From Antedon mediterranea (Eukaryota; Animalia; Echinodermata), in the NCBI RefSeq assembly GCF_964355755.1, contig NC_092670.1, positions 5,322,201 to 5,386,200 on the forward strand: a stretch of 64,000 bases of DNA. Direction: 5' to 3'. Shown here piece by piece: positions 57-19,368 of this stretch. The number at the start of each line of letters is the position of its first letter. The first letter of the stretch is position 1. The notes below the pieces were generated by a model. The model ran no database searches. It was not told where the DNA came from and was given only the letters and a program-made list of their open reading frames with translations. Position numbers and translations under genes: made by a program.

Positions 57-3000
57 CTAAATTAACGCATTCGACTCCAGCATCTTCAGAATGATCGCAG
101 TTTTCTATTCCCACACCTGCATGTCGACAAGTTGTAATCAACGTTTCATCTCCATTACACGCAATATCGTCAAGATGTATAGGTCCTGTTCCCTCGCCCC
201 AGGAGGCCTCTGATGTTGTTCTTACAGCATATAAATAGCCAAGCTGTTTGCAAACTACTGTACCGTCTGCAATGTCCCAACTATCATCACAAACTGTTCC
301 CCATACGCCATTGTAGAGTAACTCGACACGTCCTTCGTTCGAGGTAGAACCACCCCGAAGCCTAACAGTCACTAACAATTATACAAAAAAAGAAATCTAA
401 TTACAGTTGGTACAATCTCGACGACTGAATAATTTTTTATGTGTTATTTTAATTTTAAATGTCTTAGAAAAACCTTTAAATTGGTAGATACAGTAGATAA
501 AAATGGAAATAAATATTATATACTAGTGCATCACCAATAATAACTTAATTCCTACCGGAGCATCGAACACCAGCATCATCAGAATGACTACAGTGTTGTT
601 GACCTTTATGTCTTGACAGACACTGATGCAGACCAGTTTCTGTACCAACACACGCAACATCATCCAGCAAAATAGCACCAGATCCCTGTCCAAAATGCGC
701 ACCAGAGAACGCTTCACTTGGGCCTGTGTACGACATTGAATTGCAGACAACGTCTGCATCTTTAACTCCCCACGAATTGTCACAAACAGTTCCCCAGTTA
801 CTCTGGTAAAATATCTCAACACGACCCTCAAATTCATTGGCACCTCCAACAAGACGCACTACAATTGTATTAAGAAACAATAAGTTACATAAAACAAAAA
901 TTAACATTATAATCATGAGTTTTTTTAAGTTGTATCACCTAACACAGCTAGTGAAATGATGACAGTTACCTAAATAATGGCATTCCACTCCGGCATCTTC
1001 AGAATGACCACAGTTTTCTATTCCAATACCGGCGTGTGAGCAGTCTGTAATTAATGTTTCATTACCGTTACACCTAACATCGTCAAGGTGTATAGGTCCT
1101 GTTCCTTCACCCCAGGAGGCATCTGATGTTACCCTTGCAGCACCTGGATATCCAAGCTGTTTGCAAACTATCCTGCCATCTGCAATGTCCCAGTCATCGT
1201 CACAAACTGTTCCCCATACACCGTTGTGCAGTACCTCGACACGTCCTTCATTTGAGGTAGAGCCACCTCGAAGTCTAACACTAACAGGCTCTAAACAAGC
1301 AAGGGCCGTTTTTATATAAACTATATAATGTTTCAATTTATCTAACTGTAACTTGTCTATTACCCTTTTCACATGGTCCTAGCTAGACGCAAACAATCTT
1401 AATGGAGAATATAAAGAAATGTTGTGGATGTTAAATTTGGGAACGTAAAACTTCATCAACAATCGTCTACATTGAAAACTTGACAACAAATTTGTCATAG
1501 CCATTCGGCAAACCTTCAACTGTTTATATTAAAAAATTCCCATTTTCACTCCACGCCAGCCGTCAACTAACTGCTGGATACGACTCAAAGGTTGTGATTA
1601 ATGATAGGCGATTCACAGAAACAAGTAATTTGAATATACAAACATAAAACCTTACCTGAGCATCTCACGCCAGCGTCTTCAGAATGACCACAGTTGTGCT
1701 CTCCAATACGATTTGACGGACACTGATGCAGACCAGTTTCTGTACCAACACATGCAACATCATCTAGCAAAATAGGACCAGATCCCTGTCCAAAGTGCGC
1801 AACAGAGAATGCTTCACTTGAGCCTGTGTATCCTAGAGAATTACAGACAACATCGGCGTCTTCAACTCCCCACGAATCATCACAGACTGTCCCCCAGCTG
1901 TCCTGATAAAATATCTCAACACGACCCTCTAATGCAGTAAAACCTCCAGTAAGACGAACTACAAAAATTAAACAATACACAACTAAGATTTTTCAACGCG
2001 TTATCCAATATATATTAACGCCTATTAAGTATAGGGTCGCACTACAAAGTAACGTTTGTAGTACAGATGTAAAGTATTCACAAAGTATTTACTAGATGAT
2101 CCAATCATTTCTGTACTTCCCTTCGTCGAATTACCTGGTTTACAAGAAGGTTATAATAAGCTATAAGCTATTTTTTATTACTAATAGGCCTACAATTTCA
2201 TTCTGTATTATCTCGTTTGTGTATTGTGTATTATAACTTTTTCCAAAAGTATAGGATGTACAGGTCTATGAAATTAAAGGGATGATGGGTGACTAATGAT
2301 AAATCAGTTACCTAAATTAACGCATTCGACTCCGGCATCTTCAGAATGACCACAGTTTTCTATTCCAAAACCAGCGTGTGAGCAATGTGTAATCGACATT
2401 TCATCCCCATTGCAGTGTACATCGTCAAGATGTATAGGTCCTGTTCCTTCACCCCAAAATGCATTCGTTCTTACCCTTACCGCGCCTGGATATCCAAGCT
2501 GTTTGCAAATTACTCTACCGTCTGCTATACCCCAGTCATCATCACAAACTGTTCCCCATACGCCGTTGTTCAGTATTTCGACACGTCCTCCGTTCGGGGT
2601 AGAACCACCCTGAAGCCTAACAGGCACTAAAGTTTAATAAACGAAAAGTAAAACAGTTAACATGGGTAATCTGTATATCTACGTAATATGTTGCAGGGTT
2701 TTGAAGAGCCTATTTCTGCTGGGAAAACCCCGGATTTTAAACGAATTTTAAATACGTTAACGACGTGTCTGACACGGGAAATGGAACTACTGACAAATTA
2801 AAACACTATGCTGTCTCAATCGTAAAACCGGTTTTTTAAATGGTTTCCGTTCAGCTGCAACATAAATTCAGAAGGTGACTACTCTCTGTAGATAATAAGT
2901 TTGGCAGCATCCGCCTTCCATACAAGACTTAAGTTATATAAAACTGCTCGATTATTAATATTGTTTAATGTAGACTACACCAGTGTTACACGCTGTGCAA

Positions 3001-3328
3001 TTGTATCCTAATCCTTACTAATTCTTAATAATTATTCACTATCTAATGTTTATTATATCTAATCCAGCTAACGTAAATAGTTAAAAAGTTTAGTAATTTT
3101 AATGCGGAGAGCCTGCCTACCATTGTCTTTATTCATCAGACTCGATGGGGATTTCTTAAATAACAATATAACTTTATAATTTGTTGAATAGAAATCCAAA
3201 CAATAAATAAGTTTATTTCGAATGTTTAAAAATTAATTCTTACCAAATGTCCTTTTGAATATATCCCATTCGGGATTTTGTATTGCCGCAGCGGCATTCA
3301 AAAATAGCGCACACAAGAACATCTTCAT
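57..3328 (-). CDS. Secreted multi-domain scavenger receptor cysteine-rich (SRCR) protein, DMBT1/sea-urchin SRCR-like; 3' end lies outside the window
   Basis: Signal-peptide exon 3328-3244 ([28 protein letters not shown]). It is followed by five phase-1 exons, each one 6-Cys SRCR domain (VRLxGG...GRVE...WGTVCDD...EDAGVxC): 2626-2312, 1958-1656, 1290-970, 858-556, 371-57. All have AG/GT boundaries. Putative non-coding first exon has its donor at 4537. Confidence 0.93.
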
Positions 3329-4175
3329 AATTCGCTAACAAATCTGTAGTGGTTTGAGTGGATCAAGATACACAATCTGAATTACTGTAACGGTCGATAT
3401 CAAAATATTGAATACTAGCAAATACTAGTACAATTCTGGTCAATTTGATAGCCTACTTATCCCCTCCAAAACACCCCAAAACTTCCAACCCATTCCCGGG
3501 GTGAATAAAATACTTTTGAACTTTCGTAGTACAAATCTGGTCCTTTTTCTTTTTAGGTAATTTTTTTTTCTATCCAATTTTTAGTAAAAGTAAATAACTA
3601 TTATGTAACATTGAAATTGCATATTAAAAAGAAAATGTTAAACAATTTTTTTCAGGGGGACAATACATCATTAAATAAATGAATTATCAACATTCGACGA
3701 ATAATTCAATTCCATTTCTTTTATTTCGGAAAAAATTCATCCATATCAACAAACAGAAAAAGAAAAAAAAAGAAAATTCGCAAATAATAAACAGTTATCA
3801 TTTGTTTACTGAATACCACATTTACTTTTCCAAATTTAACTTTTTCTCAATCAAATCCACCGCATTCATCTTAAATGAAAAATCTTAAGGATGCAACAAA
3901 AAGACGATTTTTGCCGCAGCGCTGTAAAAAAGATATTCACCTCAGGGCGATTTCCCGTTAGCCCAGTGTGGTATTCAACAATATTGTTTTATTAAATAAA
4001 AAAGTAGTTATCGTTGACAACTATGCGTTGGACCACGTGAATCAAATTAATAAAACGGCAGAGTAAGAGTCTGTTATAAATGAGTTGATTGCAAAAAAAA
4101 CCAAAATAGTGTTTTATTGAATAAAAAAGTAGTTATCGTTAATCATTATGTTATAATCGGAAATTGCGTTACCAT

Positions 4176-4374
4176 TTTTTTAGTCGCGTGGACGCGACTC
4201 TATAGTTCACTATGTCGGTCGGTCGGTCTGTCTGTCGGTCCGGTATCACTATGCGTTTTATCGCTTTTCTGTACTTTTTGAACTGTTTTGATATACAGAA
4301 AAGTTTTAAAGTACATTACTTTTTGAAAGTTCATTTTTTTCTGAGAGCACGCGACTTATGGCTGTTGGCCTTGT
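4176..4374 (+). mobile_element. Helentron/DINE-like non-autonomous element (HINE-type)
   Basis: T-run, then AGTCGCGTG...ACGCGACT sub-terminal inverted repeat, a (GTCG/GTCT)n microsatellite, and a 3' CACGCGACT plus short hairpin ending GGCCTTGT. Confidence 0.6.
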
Positions 4375-4537
4375 GTTTATAGTGCGCCACTAGTCGCGAA
4401 TCTAGTTTCTAAAATCTAAAGTATATAATTAATCAATCAATTAAATCTATAACAGCGGTTAATATAATAGTAAAATAAATATAAAGTAAATATAGAAGGT
4501 TATTAGTTGAAATTATTAAGAGAAGCAAGTGTCTTAC

Positions 4538-4607
4538 CGTCTAAGTCGTGCTACCATACACTCGGATGATGCTGCGAAGTTGAAAGAAAACTGCAAAATG
4601 AAAATGC
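4538..4607 (-). other. Putative non-coding first exon of the SRCR gene
   Basis: Minus strand ends ...TTAGACG|GTAAGAC. It is homologous (inverted) to the plus-strand exon at 5706-5772. An acceptor at 3344-3345 precedes the ATG exon. Confidence 0.6.
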
Positions 4608-4899
4608 TTGTATTTAGTTCCTCGTTCTCTTATTCAAATTATTCGAGATAAAAATCATTAACTATTGTTCACTAATAGAAAATAAAACCAAAAACTAAAT
4701 ACTGTACATAATCCTTTCAACTTTCAACGTGACATCCGATTATTGCATGATACGGGAAATCATTGGAATTGCTTTTGTGTTGTAACCATTGTATTACCAT
4801 CATAAATACATTCACAAACAGGCCTATAATGGAAACCATTCCTATTTGACTGCCCTAGATAACAAAACAACTTCTATTTCGATGTCGCTGTGTTGCTGC

Positions 4900-4952
4900 A
4901 GTGATGTGTGACGTAATGATGAAAGATGATGGACGTTGTTTCTGATTGGTCA
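4900..4952. promoter_or_regulatory. CRE/ATF-like site and CCAAT box between the two divergent first exons
   Basis: TGACGTAA at about 4908-4915 and CTGATTGG (reverse CCAAT) at about 4943-4949. Motif match only. Confidence 0.3.
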
Positions 4953-5705
4953 GAAGTTCCTTTAATAAGACGAATGATTTTTTTGTTCTGATTTTACGTC
5001 CCCTGTAGATTAATTCGACGAAACATAATTGATATTGATAATAAGTTATATAACCCTAACCCTAACGGTCCATGCCAATCTTTCATCAATTGTATTATGA
5101 ATACAATAGCGCATACTTTAAGATGATGCAAACCTGTTTCAGATAACCAATTGTCGCGTATCTAAAACTCAATATGCATGAAGAGCAAAATAAAAAGTAA
5201 ATTTTTGTTGGTTTTATGTATTAAAATTATGTAGCATTAAAATTGCATACTCAACAATAACATTTAAAAAAATTATATTTTTTCAGGGGGACAATACATC
5301 TTTAATTGGAACCCACATACGATTCTTTTTATCTTCCCTAGAAATGGCACCAATCAACTTAGGACGCTGGAGTGTAGCGCATCCATTGCATTCCATAAGC
5401 TTTTTCTACGCTTTGTGTATACACGTATATTATAAATTGTCTAATGGGCAATATATATTATTCTTTAAACGTTTCACAAACTTAAAGAAGAAGCGAATGC
5501 CTTATTACAAAATGAAAGTTAGTTTAGTTCCTTGTTCTTGATTGATAATTCTACGAATTATTACCATTGTTCACAAACAGAAAATAAAAGCAAGTAGATA
5601 CATGATTATCAAAACTCATTGTACGATACTTTCTTTCAGGAAATCATTAGAATTGCGTTGTTTGGTACCCAAATCAAGAACGTGGAACTATAACTACCCT
5701 CTCAC

Positions 5706-5772
5706 GCATTGTTTCATTTTGTAACTTTATCTCAACACCGTAGCATCATCAAGGTATACGGCAACTGAGACG
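5706..5772 (+). other. Putative non-coding first exon of the 1146-aa gene
   Basis: TATA-like TATAAC at about 5689, Inr-like TCATTT at about 5714, donor GAGACG|GTAAGAC at 5773. Acceptor TACAG at 6643 lies 15 nt before the ATG. Confidence 0.6.
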
Positions 5773-6104
5773 GTAAGACACAATTATTTGCTTCTTATAT
5801 TAACAACTTTTTAATGAAAAATAATATTAACGCTTTCTATTAATAACATTTATTATAACCATAATCATGTAGTTATAGAAATTTTCAATCTTGGGATGGT
5901 AGGAATATCAAATATAATAAGTTAACGACTAATTATTTAAATTTAAAATCAAATTATAAAAAAAAATATTTCAAAGTAAATTCACACTATTTTAAAACCA
6001 TTAAACATTGTATCTTTTATTGTATACTTTTTCGAGATTTTTACAGTTTTATTAGTAAGTTTTTAAATGTTGGATGTTATTTATTACTTTTTATAAAGTT
6101 CCAC

Positions 6105-6487
6105 AATAACAATAATACAGGTCTCTCTCTCTCGCGAAGCCTTGTAATTGAAATGAGTACTCTTTAAATCATCATTTAACGAGGATCTATTGAAGGGCAA
6201 AATTCCAGCTCCAATAACGTATATTAAAGTTGTTTCAGTTAAAACGCTCGTAGTTGGATCTTGGGCCTATAGACTCGCGGCCCGCCCTGCCCCTTCTCTC
6301 AGTTTTCACCCGGTTCCCTTGTTTGAGTGGCGGAGGTTTACTTTGAAAACATTGGAGTGATCAAAGCAGGCTATACGTCTGAATAGCAGAGCATGTAATA
6401 ATGAATGGAATAGGACTTTTGCTGTTGCGTTTGTTTTTTGCAACTCGAGGTAATGATAAAGAGGGACTTTCGTATTGCGGTGTGAGA
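6105..6487 (+). pseudogene. Decayed 18S (SSU) rRNA fragment covering roughly the V3-V4 region
   Basis: Colinear blocks recognisable as eukaryotic 18S: TGTAATTGAAATGAGTAC, TTTAACGAGGATCTATTG.AGGGCAA, AATTCCAGCTCCAATA.CGTATATTAAAGTTG, GCTCGTAGTTGGATCTTGGG, TTTACTTTGAAAA, TCAAAGCAGGC, ATGGAATAGGAC, GAGGTAATGAT.AAGAGGGAC, TTCGTATTGCGGTGTGAGA. Many substitutions and internal deletions, so not a functional rRNA. Confidence 0.9.
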
Positions 6488-6517
6488 TATGTGTTTATAT
6501 AAATAGATACCGTATAC

Positions 6518-6613
6518 AATGAACGAATGAAGGGACGAATGAATGAATGAACGAACAAACGAGCGAGCGAGTGAGTGGGCGAGTGAGCGAACACACGAAC
6601 AAATGAATGAATA
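6518..6613 (+). repeat. Compound tetranucleotide microsatellite (GAAT/GAAC/GAGC/GAGT)n
   Basis: Directly visible tandem tetramers just downstream of the 18S fragment. Confidence 0.8.
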
Positions 6614-6658
6614 AATTGTATAACTATATATTTTTTAATACAGATCTAAAAAGTCGTC

Positions 6659-9600
6659 ATGTATCCGGTAACCGCTCTGTGTGTACTTCTGGTAGTTGCA
6701 ATGATGTCAACAGCAACCGCACAATTAAGCAAGAAGTCCATTCATAATGGCACAACTGTACCTAATGATGAGCTCATGAATGCTTTATACATCTCTGATC
6801 CCGATCCGTCGACAGGATATATGGACTTCTGGAAATCTTGGCACACAAATTACATTCTTGCTAGGCTAACTTCAAGTTCAGTGGAATACGACACCTGGTT
6901 GGAAAGAGAACACGATGCCAATGAAGCCATAACAAATCTTTGGTCGTATACAGCACATATGGTTGTTTCAAACTTATTTGATCTATATGGTCATTTTAAG
7001 GTTACTGAACAACTAGGAAACAACAAACCAACAGGTGTTATTGATTTCAAGACACTATCGTCCCATTTTCTTAACGTTAGTCAAACCTTTGATTCATATA
7101 ATGATACCTGGCCCTATTCATCGTTTAGCAAAGATTTTTTCAAGGACTTTTCTGTGGCTCTTCTACACTTGCAGCAAATGGTAAATTTCCATGATGCACG
7201 TATTCTGTATTTTTCAAACTTGGGCGTTGACAATTCGTCAAGATCTGATGTACTAGAATCTCTCTTTTCTACCACATTACTGAATTATATTCCAAGCCAA
7301 GCTACTAGCAATGTATTTTATCATTCTATAGTATTGGAAGCTATCGACTCATTTACTAGAGACAATTGGTCATATTCTCCTCAAGTAGAAACCGAAGTAA
7401 CCAGAAGGTGTTCGGATCTGTCAGGTTCTCCCGTTGCCACTGAATATTATTGTAAAGCTAAAGATGTTACTGTGTTACTAAGAGAGTGCCTTAGTTTGAA
7501 TGACGTTGTTCCATGTCTGTATTATCCCTTGTTTCAAGACTACTTCGAAAAAGGTAGATTTAGATCTCAAGACGAATTAGCTTTAATAACATGGGCCGCC
7601 GAGAAAACACGCATCGTGCTTACCTCAATTAAAGATAGTGTTTCCGCAGAAAATGAGGCTGGAATCAGAAAGTTCGTTCAAGAATACAACTCACATTTTA
7701 CAATCGTAAATGTCAAGCAATGTGTTCATAATTGGCCGAAATCCTTTGACTGTGATGGTAATTATACGTGTATGATAAACACTATGTACAGATTTGACTG
7801 TTTGATTCGATTCCTGATAGATCAAAGTCAGAAACTATTGGATGTAAAATCCTCAAGACGATGGTCTGACCCAATCGTTTTAACGGCTAAGAATAACGTA
7901 ATGATCTGGCTATCTTACTTGCCTATGGCTAATTATGTTAGCTTTGATTCTGATGACATCAATGATATAATCATATCAACACAGAGAACTGTTAATGATT
8001 ACGTTACAAGTTATAATATTGCCGGCCTTACGAAGTTTTCATTGAATCTTCCACCAGTTACACTCGTTCCACTTTGGGCCAGAAATGCTGCTTGTCAAAC
8101 GGTAACACATAACGAGGCCTACACCATATATTGTACCTTAGAGCCATTGTTGAACAGCGTTCACATGTTTGTGAAAGCATACAAACATGGTCGTAAATCT
8201 TCTGTGAAGGTGTTGAATCCAAATGTTAATTACAGAGTTTTAATCGAACAACTTCAACTAGATCGTATTCAACAATATATCAATGAACAAACACAGTCGT
8301 ATTTCAATGATATCACCAGTCAGCTTCAACACAATTTTGGATCACTATCAACTTATTTTTCATCTTTAGCTGATTATGATAAGCGGAAAGCAACTGCTGA
8401 TATTTACTCCATTGATGAAAAACTTAAATTTTTTAGTGGTCTAGTAAACACACTTACCGATAAAGTAAAATCTTCATTTTCCGTTGTCCTGGGTTTTGCC
8501 ATTGGTGCCAATACCGCTGAAGCAGTCCAGAAAACTGTTCAATATGGTGTTGCCGTTGCTCAAGTAGCTAATCCTTTGTCAACATTACTTGGAGGTTCTA
8601 GTATTCTTGATTTGATGGACAGCATTAATGATTTGGCTCAGACTAGTGTTACTACAGCTGTTTTGGTAAATCTCAGTGAGGATGAATTCCCAAAGATCGC
8701 AAATTTGGCCAAAAAAATCGGCACTGGGTTTCTTGCTAATAAGGAGCATTTGGATAATACTAAAGCATTAATTGATGGTATAAAAGAGGGTACGCCTAAT
8801 ATGGATGACATAGCGCTCACATTCCTTGAACAAGACGAGGCCTACGATTCACAGGTTTTGAAATCTGACATATCTTTATACGGAGAAAAACTTGCGACTG
8901 TCGCTGAAACATTATGTGAAGCTGCGTTTTCAGGAGATACAGCTGCTAGTGCTTTGGTTGAAGTAGGATTAGCTACCAGTGGAGATTGTACTAAAATAAG
9001 TGCAATGATTGCTCAATTAATCACTGTTTATGAAGAGCTTTATGATTTCCAATTCGATCTCATGGACACATTAGCTGACGCTGTCCGCGCTAATTTAGCA
9101 TTTGAAAAAGCAAATAAAATGAAATTGATATACACCAGCGGAACTAGAGTTGACCAGGCCTTTTTACAGAGTAGTGCTGTAAACACTTACATGGTTTCTG
9201 TTATGCATATTTGGGCAGTTATTACTGAATATTGTAATGTTCTAACATATATAAGAGGGGGAGAGGTGCCTAAAAAGTGTGATACAGCTATCAATAGTCC
9301 GTCCCACGAGAATGTTGCTCAGGTTCTTAGCTATAATCCCGCTCCACTTTGTCATGTCAACAACGAGATTACAAATTTCCATGTTATACCAACTCAACCT
9401 AGTGGAGCCGGAGATAAAGGTTATATCGATCTTGAAAAACTATATAATCTTGAAGAAGTGACATTTCAAATTCCAAACCATCAATGGCTTCAAAATAATG
9501 GCTGGGTACATGTTTCAGAAGACGAAAAACCCACCTATGTAAGTAGATTTGAATTGTATCTTCCTCCAATGTCGGGCACTTCTCAGCACACAGTTGAAAT

Positions 9601-13521: not shown

Positions 13522-16294
13522 TCATAGCTTAGTGAGAGTAACAACTTCAAATGAAGGATTTGTGAAACTTGATGCTTCTGCGTTGTCTGGCTTATCACCT
13601 TCAAATGCCAGATTTTCAGCACATTTCATTTCGGTCTTACTTTCCTATAAAAATAAATAATATACAAATAATGAATGAACTAACTGTTTAAAGCTGAACA
13701 TGTGTTTTCATGAAAGTACATTATTGTCATGCAGCGCCCTCTCTATTACAAAAAAACAAACTAAAAATCCAAGGTATTAAGCTAAAAAAGTTATACAAAT
13801 TACTGCCCTTCCTGACCTTTGATCCTAATTCCATGAACACCACATGAATGGGAAGTGATGCCAGTCATGCTAGGCAACTGTAGTAGCATTTTGAAGTGTT
13901 GGTGGAAAGAAAGGAAGAAATGGCTGAAAAAATAGAACCCAGTCAGCAGAACTAGTCGGCTGCTGACTGGGTAAAGAAATGGACTGAAAAAAACAGAACC
14001 CGGTTAGCTGAAGCTGACTGGGTAACAATACCTACTAACCTTAGGAAGTTCAATGTGCATACTCATAAATTCCAGAGGTACATTGTTTTCTTGCCAAGAC
14101 TTAGGACGGTCATTCTTCTCTCCATTCTTAATCAATTCAATACTTGGTTTAGTAGTGTCTGGTGTCATTTTAGCTTTGTACCATATATTTGTTAAAACTG
14201 AAATGAAAAAAAATGAATATTAATATAGTTGACAGATCATTGGCACATTGGCATTAACTAATATAACTGAGCTTCTTGCATACAGTCCCACCTATAAAAA
14301 AACACATTTATTAATTTTAATATTATTTGGTATGTTTAAATCAACAGGAAAAAAAATGTATCGTGCATAAAAAAAACATAATTCTTGGCCTTCAAATGCT
14401 CTAACCAGCCAGTAAAAAAAATGTATCATGCATAAAAAAAACCAAGAATTCTTGGCTTTCAAATGCTCTAACCAGCCAGTAAAAAAAATGTATCATGCAT
14501 AAAAAAAAACCCAGAATTCTAGGCTTTTAAATGCTCTACACAGCCAGTAAAAAATGTATCATTGGTATATGGAATGCAAGGTGAATTTATACTCACATAT
14601 TAAAAATATTGTAAGGAATGTACCAAGAAAGACGGCAAACCACTGAGGTATACTGAGAAGTGGCTCCCTGGCACTACTACTACTGCTAGCTGTTCCCTTT
14701 ATTTCAGTAGGCTTTGTTTCTTCAGTGGTTTTTATTGGTAAAAATGGTTTTGTTGTTTTAATAGGAGGTTCAGTGGCTACTTTTGTAGTAGACAACGCTA
14801 CTTTTTCTGTGGATTGAGGATTCTGTACTGTAGTGAGAGACTTGGATGTTTTGGTGGTTGTACCAGCAATTGTTGTTTTCCCATTTATTGTCGTTGAATT
14901 GGAATGTGTAGACGGATGTGGTTGTTCACTTAATGTTGTTACTAGAGGATGAGGTGTAGTCCTTTCTTGTGTTGATTGTCCACTTGGTGTCGTTATTTGA
15001 GAACCAGTGGTTGTTCTTTTCAATGAAGTTGTTTCCATATTTAGAGTAGTCTCTTGAGAATCAAGGGTTGTTCTTCCTTTTGATGAAGTAAGTTCTGTTG
15101 ATTCAATATTTGATTCTGTCGTTTTATCAGTAGATCCCTGAATATTAGTTGTTTCAAAAATGGTTGTTGCAGAGTTTGGAATGGTGCTGACTATTGCACT
15201 TTTACTGGAAGGAATTAAAGTTGTTGGCAGAATTGAACTGGAAGGCTTTCTTGTGGATGCTGGTGCAAAAGATGTCAGTCCATCAATGGCTGCGGAAGTT
15301 AGTGATGTATGCACCAAATCAGATGTTTTAATGTCTGTTGTTAAGATATCAGGTGTTGTTTGGGACTGTGCCATGGGTATGAGCAAAGATACGAGAAAGA
15401 CTAGAAGAAAAAAAACCCAAAAATGTTATACTTTGTTACTATACTTTATATTTTTTATAGTATACTTTCATTGATAAAACAAAACCTAAAACATGCAAAA
15501 AACTTTCTCTTTTTATTGTTTTGAATAGTAATTAGTATACAACAAAGTATTAAAAAATTAGTCTTTCACTCAGTTCCACTATACATAAATACTAACTGTA
15601 CATGTAGGTGTTCAGTAATAACATTACAACATTTGCAATTTTCAAACGTCTCACTATCCAACAGATAGAGGGCAACAAATATTAGTTGGTTTGTCTTGTG
15701 TATTTTAGTATTTTTCATCATTATTGGTTATTCTTAAAATCACCCAACCAATTATTTTATTTTTCAGATTGTTGACAACTTCAAAAAATTCACCATATTT
15801 TTCTTATAACCCAGCAGGGGTTGGAAGGTCTCATATAGCCAGTTGTATTGTTAGTGGATTTAATATTTCAGCATGCAACTATTAATACATTAACACTGAC
15901 AGGAAAACAAGAATTAGCTATATAGGTATAAAACATTCTAAAATCTTTCATTTTTTAAAACAAGATTGGTCCAAGTATTTATCCTCACTCATGCTAACTA
16001 GATGGTTTTCTTTTTTGCCTCATCCTCTCTTGATGGAACGTAAAGCTGCTGAACTGATGTACATAATTAAATGCACAATAAAAGAACTATGCTGGATAGT
16101 TTCTGGATTTGCTGACAACGTGATACATATTTCCCCACTCTATAAACTAAGGACGAATACACTTACTGTACAATTTGTAGAATATCTCAATGTTTTATAT
16201 AAATAATGATTTAAGTTTAAAAGGACATACAGTATTACATGAAACAGCAAGTAATAATCTAATTATTCTACTTACCAATTAATATGTTAATCAT
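13522..16294 (-). CDS. Mucin-like type I single-pass membrane protein of about 367 aa (podocalyxin/CD34/endomucin-like architecture)
   Basis: Exons 16294-16276, 15400-14597, 14197-14040 and 13644-13522 join in frame (phases 1, 1, 0). Signal peptide MINILIVFLVSLLIPMAQS, Thr/Ser/Pro-rich ectodomain, TM WFAVFLGTFLTIFLIFLTNIW, and a cytoplasmic tail ending NPSFEVVTLTKL*. Confidence 0.88.
14348..14560. repeat. Intronic minisatellite, about 66-bp unit x3
   Basis: AAAAAATGTATCATGCATAAAAAAA...AATTCTTGGC.TTCAAATGCTCTAACCAGCCAGT repeated three times. Confidence 0.85.
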
Positions 16295-18302: not shown

Positions 18303-19368
18303 GGGTGTCACGAAACCTAAGACCACGAAAGCTAAGATCCCCTAAGACCTAAGATCACGAAAGCTAAGACCCAAGAACTAAGATTACATATTCTAAGATA
18401 TACTACAGCTTAAAAACAATACTTGTTTATCCATACATAATTTTAAACATAGTAGGTTTCATTTAATACCACAAATAAAATTAAATACTACCGCAAAACA
18501 TAGATAAACTCACGTTATTTTCGCCCGTTGAGTAAATGTATATTTTTTCTTTACAACAAACAAACTTGACGGGTTGTTTGTTGGTATATATTTACTCCAT
18601 TGTGTTGGTTCAGAGGATGTTTTTCTTTCGCACCTGCCTTTCTTGTATTTTGACTCCAAATGTGTTAACTAACTTTATCCTGAATACCACACTTTAAAAT
18701 TAGGACTTATAAGTACTTTCAGAAGGAGAAACACATAAAAACAAATAAATAAATCCTTTAAATTGATGATTTTACAGACGTGTTTCTTTGTATACTGTAA
18801 CTCCTCATGCTCAATGTTTTTGTTTCTATGGAGCGCCAAAAGAGCAACAATAATAGTAGAAGTATAAAAACAGAAAGAAAACGAAACAAAAAAACTAATA
18901 TTATCATGATTTTTAAATTAAATTTTATTTGCGAGTATTTATTTCTTCGTACTAGCATGATATATATACTATTATCATTACAATTTTAATTTTACATTGT
19001 TCCATCCACACTGTAGATGGTCTCCACAGAGTTTTCAGCTCTTTTGACGTTCCATAGAAACAAAAACATTGAACATGGGGTAGGCCTACTGTACTGTTAG
19101 GCTAGTCATGCAAAATTCGCAAACAGTATGTGTGCGAGAAAAACGTCTGTAAAATCATCAATTTAAAAATGTATTTGTTACTTTTTATGTGATTCTTTTT
19201 CATAAAAGTGCTAATTCTAAGGTGTGGTATTCAGATTCATGTTGGGAGTTAAAATACAAGGCAGGTGCTAAAGATAAATATTTGTAATCTTAGTTCTTGG
19301 TTCTTAGCTTTCGTGATCTTAGGTCTTAGGGGGTCTTAGCTTTCGTGGTCTTAGGTTTCGTGACACCC
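18303..19368. mobile_element. Mutator-like/foldback non-autonomous DNA transposon
   Basis: About 85-bp near-perfect TIRs starting GGGTGTCACGAAACCTAAGACC with internal CTAAGA repeats. A 10-bp TSD GTTATTTGGG (18293-18302, 19369-19378). Further internal inverted arms at about 18630-18845 and 19038-19270. Confidence 0.9.

Follow-up and report, generated by a model that had tools for sequence, protein, structure and literature searches.

Three copies of a donor-ending segment between two unrelated secreted-protein genes of Antedon mediterranea: a candidate fold-back first exon

How do two neighboring genes that encode unrelated secreted proteins come to be preceded by the same piece of sequence, and do both of them use it as a first exon? 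We investigated this question in a stretch of 64,000 nt from the echinoderm Antedon mediterranea (NCBI RefSeq assembly GCF_964355755.1, contig NC_092670.1, positions 5,322,201 to 5,386,200 of the forward strand), referred to as the window, in which all positions are counted from its first letter. On the minus strand lies a gene for a secreted protein with scavenger receptor cysteine-rich (SRCR) domains (the left gene) and on the plus strand, head to head with it, an intronless open reading frame (ORF) for a large secreted protein (the right gene). An initial annotation of the sequence had proposed that the two genes share an inverted, homologous first exon and promoter. We observed that a segment ending in a splice donor is present in three copies between the genes, and on balance we favor the explanation that these copies arose by a tandem duplication followed by a fold-back, with the right-facing copy acting as the first exon of the right gene. 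The coordinates of the features are given in Table 1.

The reverse complement of the region in front of the left gene aligns with the plus strand in front of the right gene (4634-4439 (-) against 5672-5883 (+)), with 144 of 184 aligned bases identical (z score 15.6, equalled by none of 300 shuffles), or 144 of 224 (64%) if all columns with gaps are counted. The inverted homology seen in the initial annotation is therefore real and includes the splice donor. When the alignment was cut at the donor, the exon part scored z 18.4 (0 of 500 shuffles equal) and the intron part z 3.1 (4 of 500). The last exon base is 4538 (-) in the left and 5772 (+) in the right copy, and both copies end in G/GTAAGA, the stroke marking the exon end. 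Between 3300 and 6700 the string GGTAAG occurs once per strand, precisely at these two donors, while by a crude 9-base donor consensus each of them scores 7 of 9 and is merely tied for best on its own strand. The donor is covered by the longest exact run (14 nt) of the inverted alignment; a run over the donor of this length was equalled in 183 of 20,000 column permutations, a test that was picked post hoc with the alignment already seen. As expected of a shared first exon, an intact donor within the homologous segment faces an acceptor of each gene, and from the sequence the copies probably serve as first exons of both. The left copy carries an upstream ATG at 4555-4557 (-), which after splicing would open a short ORF with its stop overlapping the main ATG, whereas no ATG is found in the right copy. 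The possibility that the shared segment forms a structured RNA was considered and rejected: three Rfam rows (E values 0.56-0.92) were all below the gathering score and lay outside the shared copies.

It had been conceded with the initial annotation that the segment might be a high-copy repeat. Depth in a DNA run, counted at 88% likeness, was 18-20 in the bins 4603-4956 and 5311-5664 and 31 in the bin 5665-6018, compared to about 17 over the right ORF and 2,000-65,000 in adjoining repeat bins, and no further copy of the segment was found within the 64-kb window. At this likeness the segment is near single-copy and lacks the many genomic copies of a high-copy repeat or a miniature inverted-repeat transposable element. 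A direct match between 3557-3674 and 5197-5305 was rejected as a part of the module, as it is itself a high-copy repeat.

The promoter part of the proposal did not hold in its inverted form. The spacers upstream of the two exon copies match each other in direct orientation (4594-4788 against 5508-5671, 131 of 164 bases, z 15.8). Between the two genes the spacer therefore has opposite orientations with respect to its exon, and exon and promoter were not duplicated as one inverted unit. The inverted homology was also followed across the whole introns, where it reached just z 3.6 in AT-rich DNA and was not counted. A third, partial exon copy at 5543-5505 (-) had been missed before. It agrees with the head of the right copy at 37 of 39 positions and with that of the left copy at 33 of 39, and it has the letters of the right copy at its head without the intronic insertion of that copy. 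It and the right exon are the arms of an interrupted palindrome (5505-5543 and 5672-5724, 37 of 39, z 7.0) around a 128-nt spacer. The palindrome folds as DNA with z -4.97 (0 of 200 shuffles), the spacer being not self-complementary, and inverted arms around a single-copy spacer are the arrangement of a fold-back. The resulting layout reads: left exon (minus), spacer A', then the eroded exon (minus), spacer A and the right exon (plus). The donor is present in both copies that face a coding exon and is deleted in the third.

Table 1. Features between and within the two genes, with positions in the window
Feature	Position	Strand	Remarks
Five SRCR-domain exons of the left gene	57..2626	-	2312-2626, 1656-1958, 970-1290, 556-858, 57-371; gene extends past the window start
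Left exon 2	3244..3343	-	15-nt leader, ATG at 3328, signal peptide, phase-1 donor in frame to the first SRCR exon
Predicted left intron 1	3344..4537	-	high-copy repeats at 3557-3674 and ~4175-4350
Left copy of the shared segment, candidate non-coding exon 1	4538..4634	-	ends G/GTAAGA; homology into the intron to ~4439
Spacer A', upstream of the left exon	4635..4788		direct, not inverted, homolog of spacer A
High-copy repeat	5197..5310		direct match (5197-5305) to 3557-3674; depth in thousands
Third, eroded exon copy, left palindrome arm	5480..5543	-	head 5543-5505 kept; ~55 nt including the donor deleted
Spacer A between the palindrome arms, candidate core promoter	5544..5671		putatively used in the opposite direction by the right gene
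Right copy of the shared segment, candidate non-coding exon 1	5672..5772	+	ends G/GTAAGA; weaker homology to ~5883
Predicted right intron 1	5773..6643	+	decayed 18S ribosomal DNA fragment 6064-6596; T-rich acceptor; X1 contig unspliced 6381-6887
Intronless ORF of the right gene, 1146 residues	6659..10099	+	signal peptide, helical N-terminal half, long-helix core, beta domain, cysteine-rich tail

The following series of events would account for this layout. The 5' module of the SRCR gene, consisting of the exon and the spacer, would first have been duplicated in tandem. The exon of the second module would then have been copied, inverted, to the far side of its spacer, a step we infer because inverted arms around a single-copy spacer are the usual shape of a fold-back; a fold-back later than the tandem duplication would leave the third copy closer to the right than to the left exon, as observed. 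Subsequently the left arm would have eroded, while the right arm kept its donor, the sole GGTAAG on the plus strand before the acceptor at 6644. Since the candidate right exon lies at the opposite end of the spacer from that of the left gene, a shared regulation would need a bidirectional spacer or exon head. Spacer and conserved exon head might start transcription in both directions, in which case the two genes would be partly co-regulated and their products secreted by overlapping cells. In this reading the SRCR protein would bind microbial surfaces on its own, as a soluble protein, with no physical complex required.

The exon copies would be spliced to acceptors at 3343 and 6644, and both of these sit 15 nt before an ATG (3328 and 6659), exactly where they had been placed before. 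The suggestion that the two sites match does not extend to homology, which was rejected for the acceptors and signal peptides by shuffling (465 and 196 of 500 shuffles scored as well); the equal 15-nt leaders are for this reason probably coincidental. A second AG is found 6 nt before the left ATG. Five sequencing runs cover the stretch, none of them on record as RNA; the RNA data used here are one contig set (X1), which we took as RNA-like because the SRCR exons are spliced in it, at joints with CT..AC ends and in agreement with ORFs and splice sites. X1 contigs span most of the right ORF and extend to 10458. On 3230-6900, X1 does not cover 4460-5197 and 5321-5812, where the exon copies lie, and neither junction is among the nine joints listed, a blank that counts as no evidence. 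Nine X1 differences, a small part of all, are listed in the right ORF, six of which change a residue and three of which are silent; a 9-nt in-frame deletion in the signal peptide of the right protein is also among the X1 differences. The ribosomal fragment in the predicted right intron was recognized by Rfam RF01960 (88 bits), and one X1 contig matches it with 3 differences. The element at 4175-4350 in the left intron is present in very high copy number and contains a GTCG/GTCT microsatellite; it resembles elements of the DINE-1/Helentron type.

Several observations weigh against the reading that the right gene received its first exon by tandem duplication and fold-back. Per-column identity between left and right is near-equal in the exon (66%), the intron flank (60%) and the spacer (64%), and the donor alone points to selection; such even divergence would be compatible with a moderately old duplication as much as with selection. 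The left acceptor is T-poor, with 5 T in 20 nt compared to 6-14 at the five SRCR acceptors. The order of events is read from 39 bases, and conversion between the palindrome arms could mimic it. CRE-like (cAMP response element) and CCAAT elements at 4909-4949, between the two modules, are not duplicated; as they stand, these motifs could act on both genes. Finally, an X1 contig (depth 5.3) extends over 6381-6887 and reads through the right acceptor unspliced, and both introns contain X1 contigs of depth about 4. These contigs, which could be pre-mRNA, DNA carry-over or an unspliced 5' end, weigh mildly against the right splice unless one of the first two is the case. Together with a second contig at 6110-6285, the uniform divergence and the lack of homology between the acceptors, the unspliced contig would suit a duplication that was inert for the right gene, which would then have its own promoter nearer to the ORF and no intron, the right-facing copy being a decaying by-product. 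We consider this explanation rather unlikely, as the right copy has kept its donor intact while the third has lost it, the run over the donor is seldom matched by permutation, a T-rich acceptor lies 15 nt before the right ATG, and the left intron has intronic contigs of like depth, compatible with pre-mRNA or DNA.

The same three pieces would also result if the exon and spacer originally belonged to the right gene and reached the SRCR gene, as its 5' end, by a fold-back and a subsequent tandem copy. Two features of the right gene suit this direction, namely its old family, which includes near full-length relatives, and its acceptor, the stronger of the two. This order predicts, however, an eroded copy that is sister to the left exon, while the third copy agrees with the right exon at 37 and with the left at 33 of 39 positions, and we regard it as very improbable. 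A remnant of a small transposon is scarcely credible either. The palindrome arms would be its terminal inverted repeats around spacer A rather than part of a first exon, and indeed arms of 40-50 nt fold back around the 128-nt interior and true high-copy repeats lie nearby. Nevertheless, the homology extends 160 nt beyond the right arm and through the donor, the left module has just one arm, no target-site duplication is seen at the arm ends, and depth and copy number are those of near single-copy DNA. Preferring tandem duplication and fold-back to these explanations, we turn to what the two genes encode, on which the last alternative depends.

The left product is an annotated Antedon mediterranea protein (P0173, 765 residues), to which one SRCR exon of the window is 100% identical and whose N-terminus is the signal-peptide exon proposed in the initial annotation. 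It contains seven SRCR domains and ends after the seventh, with no Pfam match to CUB or ZP. A signal peptide and tandem SRCR domains make it a soluble multi-SRCR protein. DMBT1 binds microbes, and DMBT1 proper combines an SRCR array with CUB and ZP domains. The former assignment to a DMBT1-type protein is accordingly kept as far as a secreted multi-SRCR protein is concerned and dropped for DMBT1 proper. P0173 resembles the echinoderm DMBT1-like soluble group B SRCR proteins in its signal peptide and its tandem SRCR domains, one per phase-1 exon, and its public record is so named; it differs from them in consisting of seven SRCR domains only. The coding sequences of the two genes are unrelated, as had been stated, and as the left product is SRCR-only the shared 5' end does not reflect paralogy of whole genes. 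An origin of the left gene as a paralog of the right one with SRCR domains and a core like that of the right protein was likewise rejected, since P0173 ends at the seventh SRCR domain and the SRCR-fused cores described below form a distant clade. A derivation of left exon 2 from cathepsin L was also considered; no Pfam or Protein Data Bank (PDB) match to it was found on the 28 residues, a length insufficient to settle the point.

The right protein matched no Pfam family. In its predicted model (predicted local distance difference test score 84.6, predicted template modelling score 0.73) the N-terminal half is helical and a beta domain spans 903-1085; the model also shows helices of 67, 43 and 51 residues and a tail rich in cysteines, and residues 77-900 are helical save for one 3-residue strand. 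The hydropathy averaged over the family is maximal at residues 609-647, a hydrophobic turn between two long helices. With Foldseek at E <= 0.001, all matches were A subunits of Tc toxins (TcA), namely 12 of 12 for the whole model (best 5e-5) and 16 of 16 for the core (best 3.8e-7). In a second structural comparison, residues ~21-607 of the core lie on the last 500 TcA residues, helices and beta domain included (Z 7.3-8.0), and the collinear alignments cover 236-253 residues with a root-mean-square deviation (rmsd) of 5.2-6.2; generic bundles score higher there than TcA. Neighbors by a protein language model included a bacterial cluster (0.93) and TcA_TcB_BD clusters (0.86-0.87), which serve as a lead only.

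Against a TcA-like core it has to be said that the TcA TM-scores are 0.11-0.20 at ~10% identity, with Z within the range of generic helical bundles, and that a wide structural search ranks designed bundles, FERRY and cytochrome b561 first; TcA is not among its top 50, which does not exclude a likeness to TcA. With the full model, pore formers of the ClyA type score Z 6.2-7.7 compared to 5.8-5.9 for TcA. No sequence match to TcA was obtained in Pfam or PDB, with no TcA chain at E <= 10, and PF18276 was not among the 25 of 46 Pfam families shown for 32 core members. No ORF for TcB or TcC was evident among the 42 ORFs of at least 90 residues in the window, 6 of which were scanned against Pfam. 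A bacterial source of the right gene found no backing either: none of 151 pattern matches in genome contigs was confirmed, and there was no plasmid match. Decay of the right ORF was rejected, since it departs from the family at 2 of 36 conserved columns, which is near the median.

The likeness to the A subunits of Tc (ABC) toxins (TcdA1, XptA1/2, YenA2; PF18276) thus lies in the prediction of a long helical hairpin with a beta domain C-terminal to it. The right protein is half the size of these subunits and differs further by its signal peptide, its 26 cysteines and its cysteine-rich tail. TcA subunits are described as carrying neuraminidase-like and Ig-like receptor-binding domains in their shell (PMC10317148), and Tc toxins have been described from bacteria (PMC7861908) and fungi (PMC13236867). 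In the model of the right protein the N-terminal half shows no beta-rich neuraminidase-like or Ig-like domain. Having neither these shell domains nor a sequence match, the right protein is not a member of TcA. The helical bundle at 560-880 also resembles pore formers of the ClyA superfamily (AhlB, ClyA, XaxB, Cry6Aa, MakE, SmhB; Z 6.2-7.7, rmsd 4.7-7.8), with scores in the generic range, Foldseek E values of 0.02 or worse and the C-terminal beta domain left uncovered. What stands of the toxin-like protein proposed at first is therefore a predicted TcA-like helical core, while a match in sequence and the TcA shell domains are missing. From the model, the right protein likely works like the channel end of TcA, and we lean toward an oligomeric alpha-helical membrane pore, acting in defense and built like the TcA channel with a C-terminal beta domain.

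In a representative library the right protein has 263 relatives at E <= 0.001, and most of the 150 listed share residues 480-1146. Closest among the named ones are six paralogs of the limpet Lottia gigantea with 42-57% identity, followed by relatives with 34-37%; the 480-residue N-terminal half is common to the Lottia relatives, and the right protein groups with the limpet proteins with a support of 0.87. This closeness of crinoid and limpet may reflect transfer between animals or heavy loss. The right protein itself did not appear among the scored candidates of the search for relatives and may be unannotated. For the N-terminal heads, 38 chosen and 54 further relatives were compared as whole proteins with Pfam, and 49 of the latter 54 matched no family; the heads that were recognized are SRCR, olfactomedin (5 of the 38 chosen), HYR/Sushi, ricin-B, PAN and LDLa. 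A profile of the SRCR exons of the window, run over 154 relatives, found 14 with SRCR domains N-terminal to the core, one of them below the Pfam cut-off. In a tree of 132 cores (the protein of the window and 131 relatives, cores covering fewer than 450 profile positions being left out, and P0101 labelled from the Pfam scan of the further relatives) the 14 SRCR-fused relatives fall in a single clade of 15 tips with a support of 0.98, and this clustering argues for probably one fusion event. Four of them (P0084, P0102, P0144, P0153) start with a propeptide and a short E-C-C-x-E-like segment that by eye resembles a Gla domain; the Pfam scan of the 38 chosen relatives gave no Gla match.

These fusions would agree with a sensor-effector reading. 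In its strong form, which takes up the two-component defense unit of the initial annotation, the pair would be under selection as a unit: the SRCR protein would bind microbes and recruit or aim a pore former, the two being a split form of the SRCR-core fusions. Besides the SRCR domains, and the other heads, that stand N-terminal to the same core in the relatives, the signal peptides on both proteins and the head-to-head genes with a shared module speak for it. Nonetheless we judge it unlikely. The fusions form a single clade at a distance of 3.4-4.2 from the right protein, a point that weighs against our own interpretation as well; the right protein retains its own N-terminal half, shared with the Lottia relatives; the spacer is flipped relative to the exon; and SRCR domains are very common in echinoderms, so that an SRCR neighbor is not rare. 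Of similarly low probability is a wider conjecture, namely a family of stand-alone secreted eukaryotic TcA-like pore formers with swappable heads (SRCR, olfactomedin, Sushi, ricin-B), of which the feather star would have a split version, an operon-like defense pair in which the fold-back connected a free SRCR binder and the pore former to copies of a single first exon, and whose origin would be legible stepwise in the sequence.

The proposed acquisition of a first exon by duplication and fold-back can be compared with known routes to new 5' ends. Intronless genes that acquired promoters and new 5' untranslated region (UTR) exons have been described (PMC3670739); the right gene resembles them in its intronless coding sequence, its one predicted 5' UTR intron and a promoter from the neighborhood, and differs in that their promoters were shared in place or arose anew, whereas here the exon and donor of a neighbor would have been copied and inverted, with the intermediate surviving. 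Two further cases have been reported (10.1101/2025.11.08.687349): at BRCA1/NBR1 a bidirectional promoter was duplicated in tandem, and at CCDC200 there is the inverted duplication Janus/sunaJ. The likeness is that tandem or inverted duplications of promoter and first exons make new 5' ends; the copies at BRCA1/NBR1 and CCDC200 are, however, ~4 kb long and drive a pseudogene and a long non-coding RNA, while in our case a module of ~350 nt faces an intact, unrelated protein-coding gene. The glycerotoxin of Glycera (PMC5336659), similar in outline, is a large secreted animal toxin with N-terminal recognition modules and an unassigned C-terminal part, as in some members of the family studied here. 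A literature search covering few subscription papers yielded no report of a fold-back first-exon copy serving an unrelated protein-coding gene, and no description of an animal TcA-like family.

If the exon is used, the locus would preserve a rare route by which an intronless gene gains a promoter and a 5' exon from an unrelated neighbor, within 1.5 kb and with the intermediate included, and two or three further crinoid genomes would allow the event to be dated. The right gene, in turn, opens a family of at least 263 large secreted proteins in which a predicted TcA-like core is joined to recognition heads of various kinds; pore formation, if its members are capable of it, would make them a new class of animal defense or venom effectors.

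Elsewhere in the window we observed a Ser/Thr-rich, mucin-like membrane ORF at 14559-15425 (-) and inverted arms of 89 nt with 97% complementarity, 888 nt apart (18303-19368), which are likely those of a non-autonomous transposon. Argonaute exons with a Piwi match are located at 38352-51197 (+).

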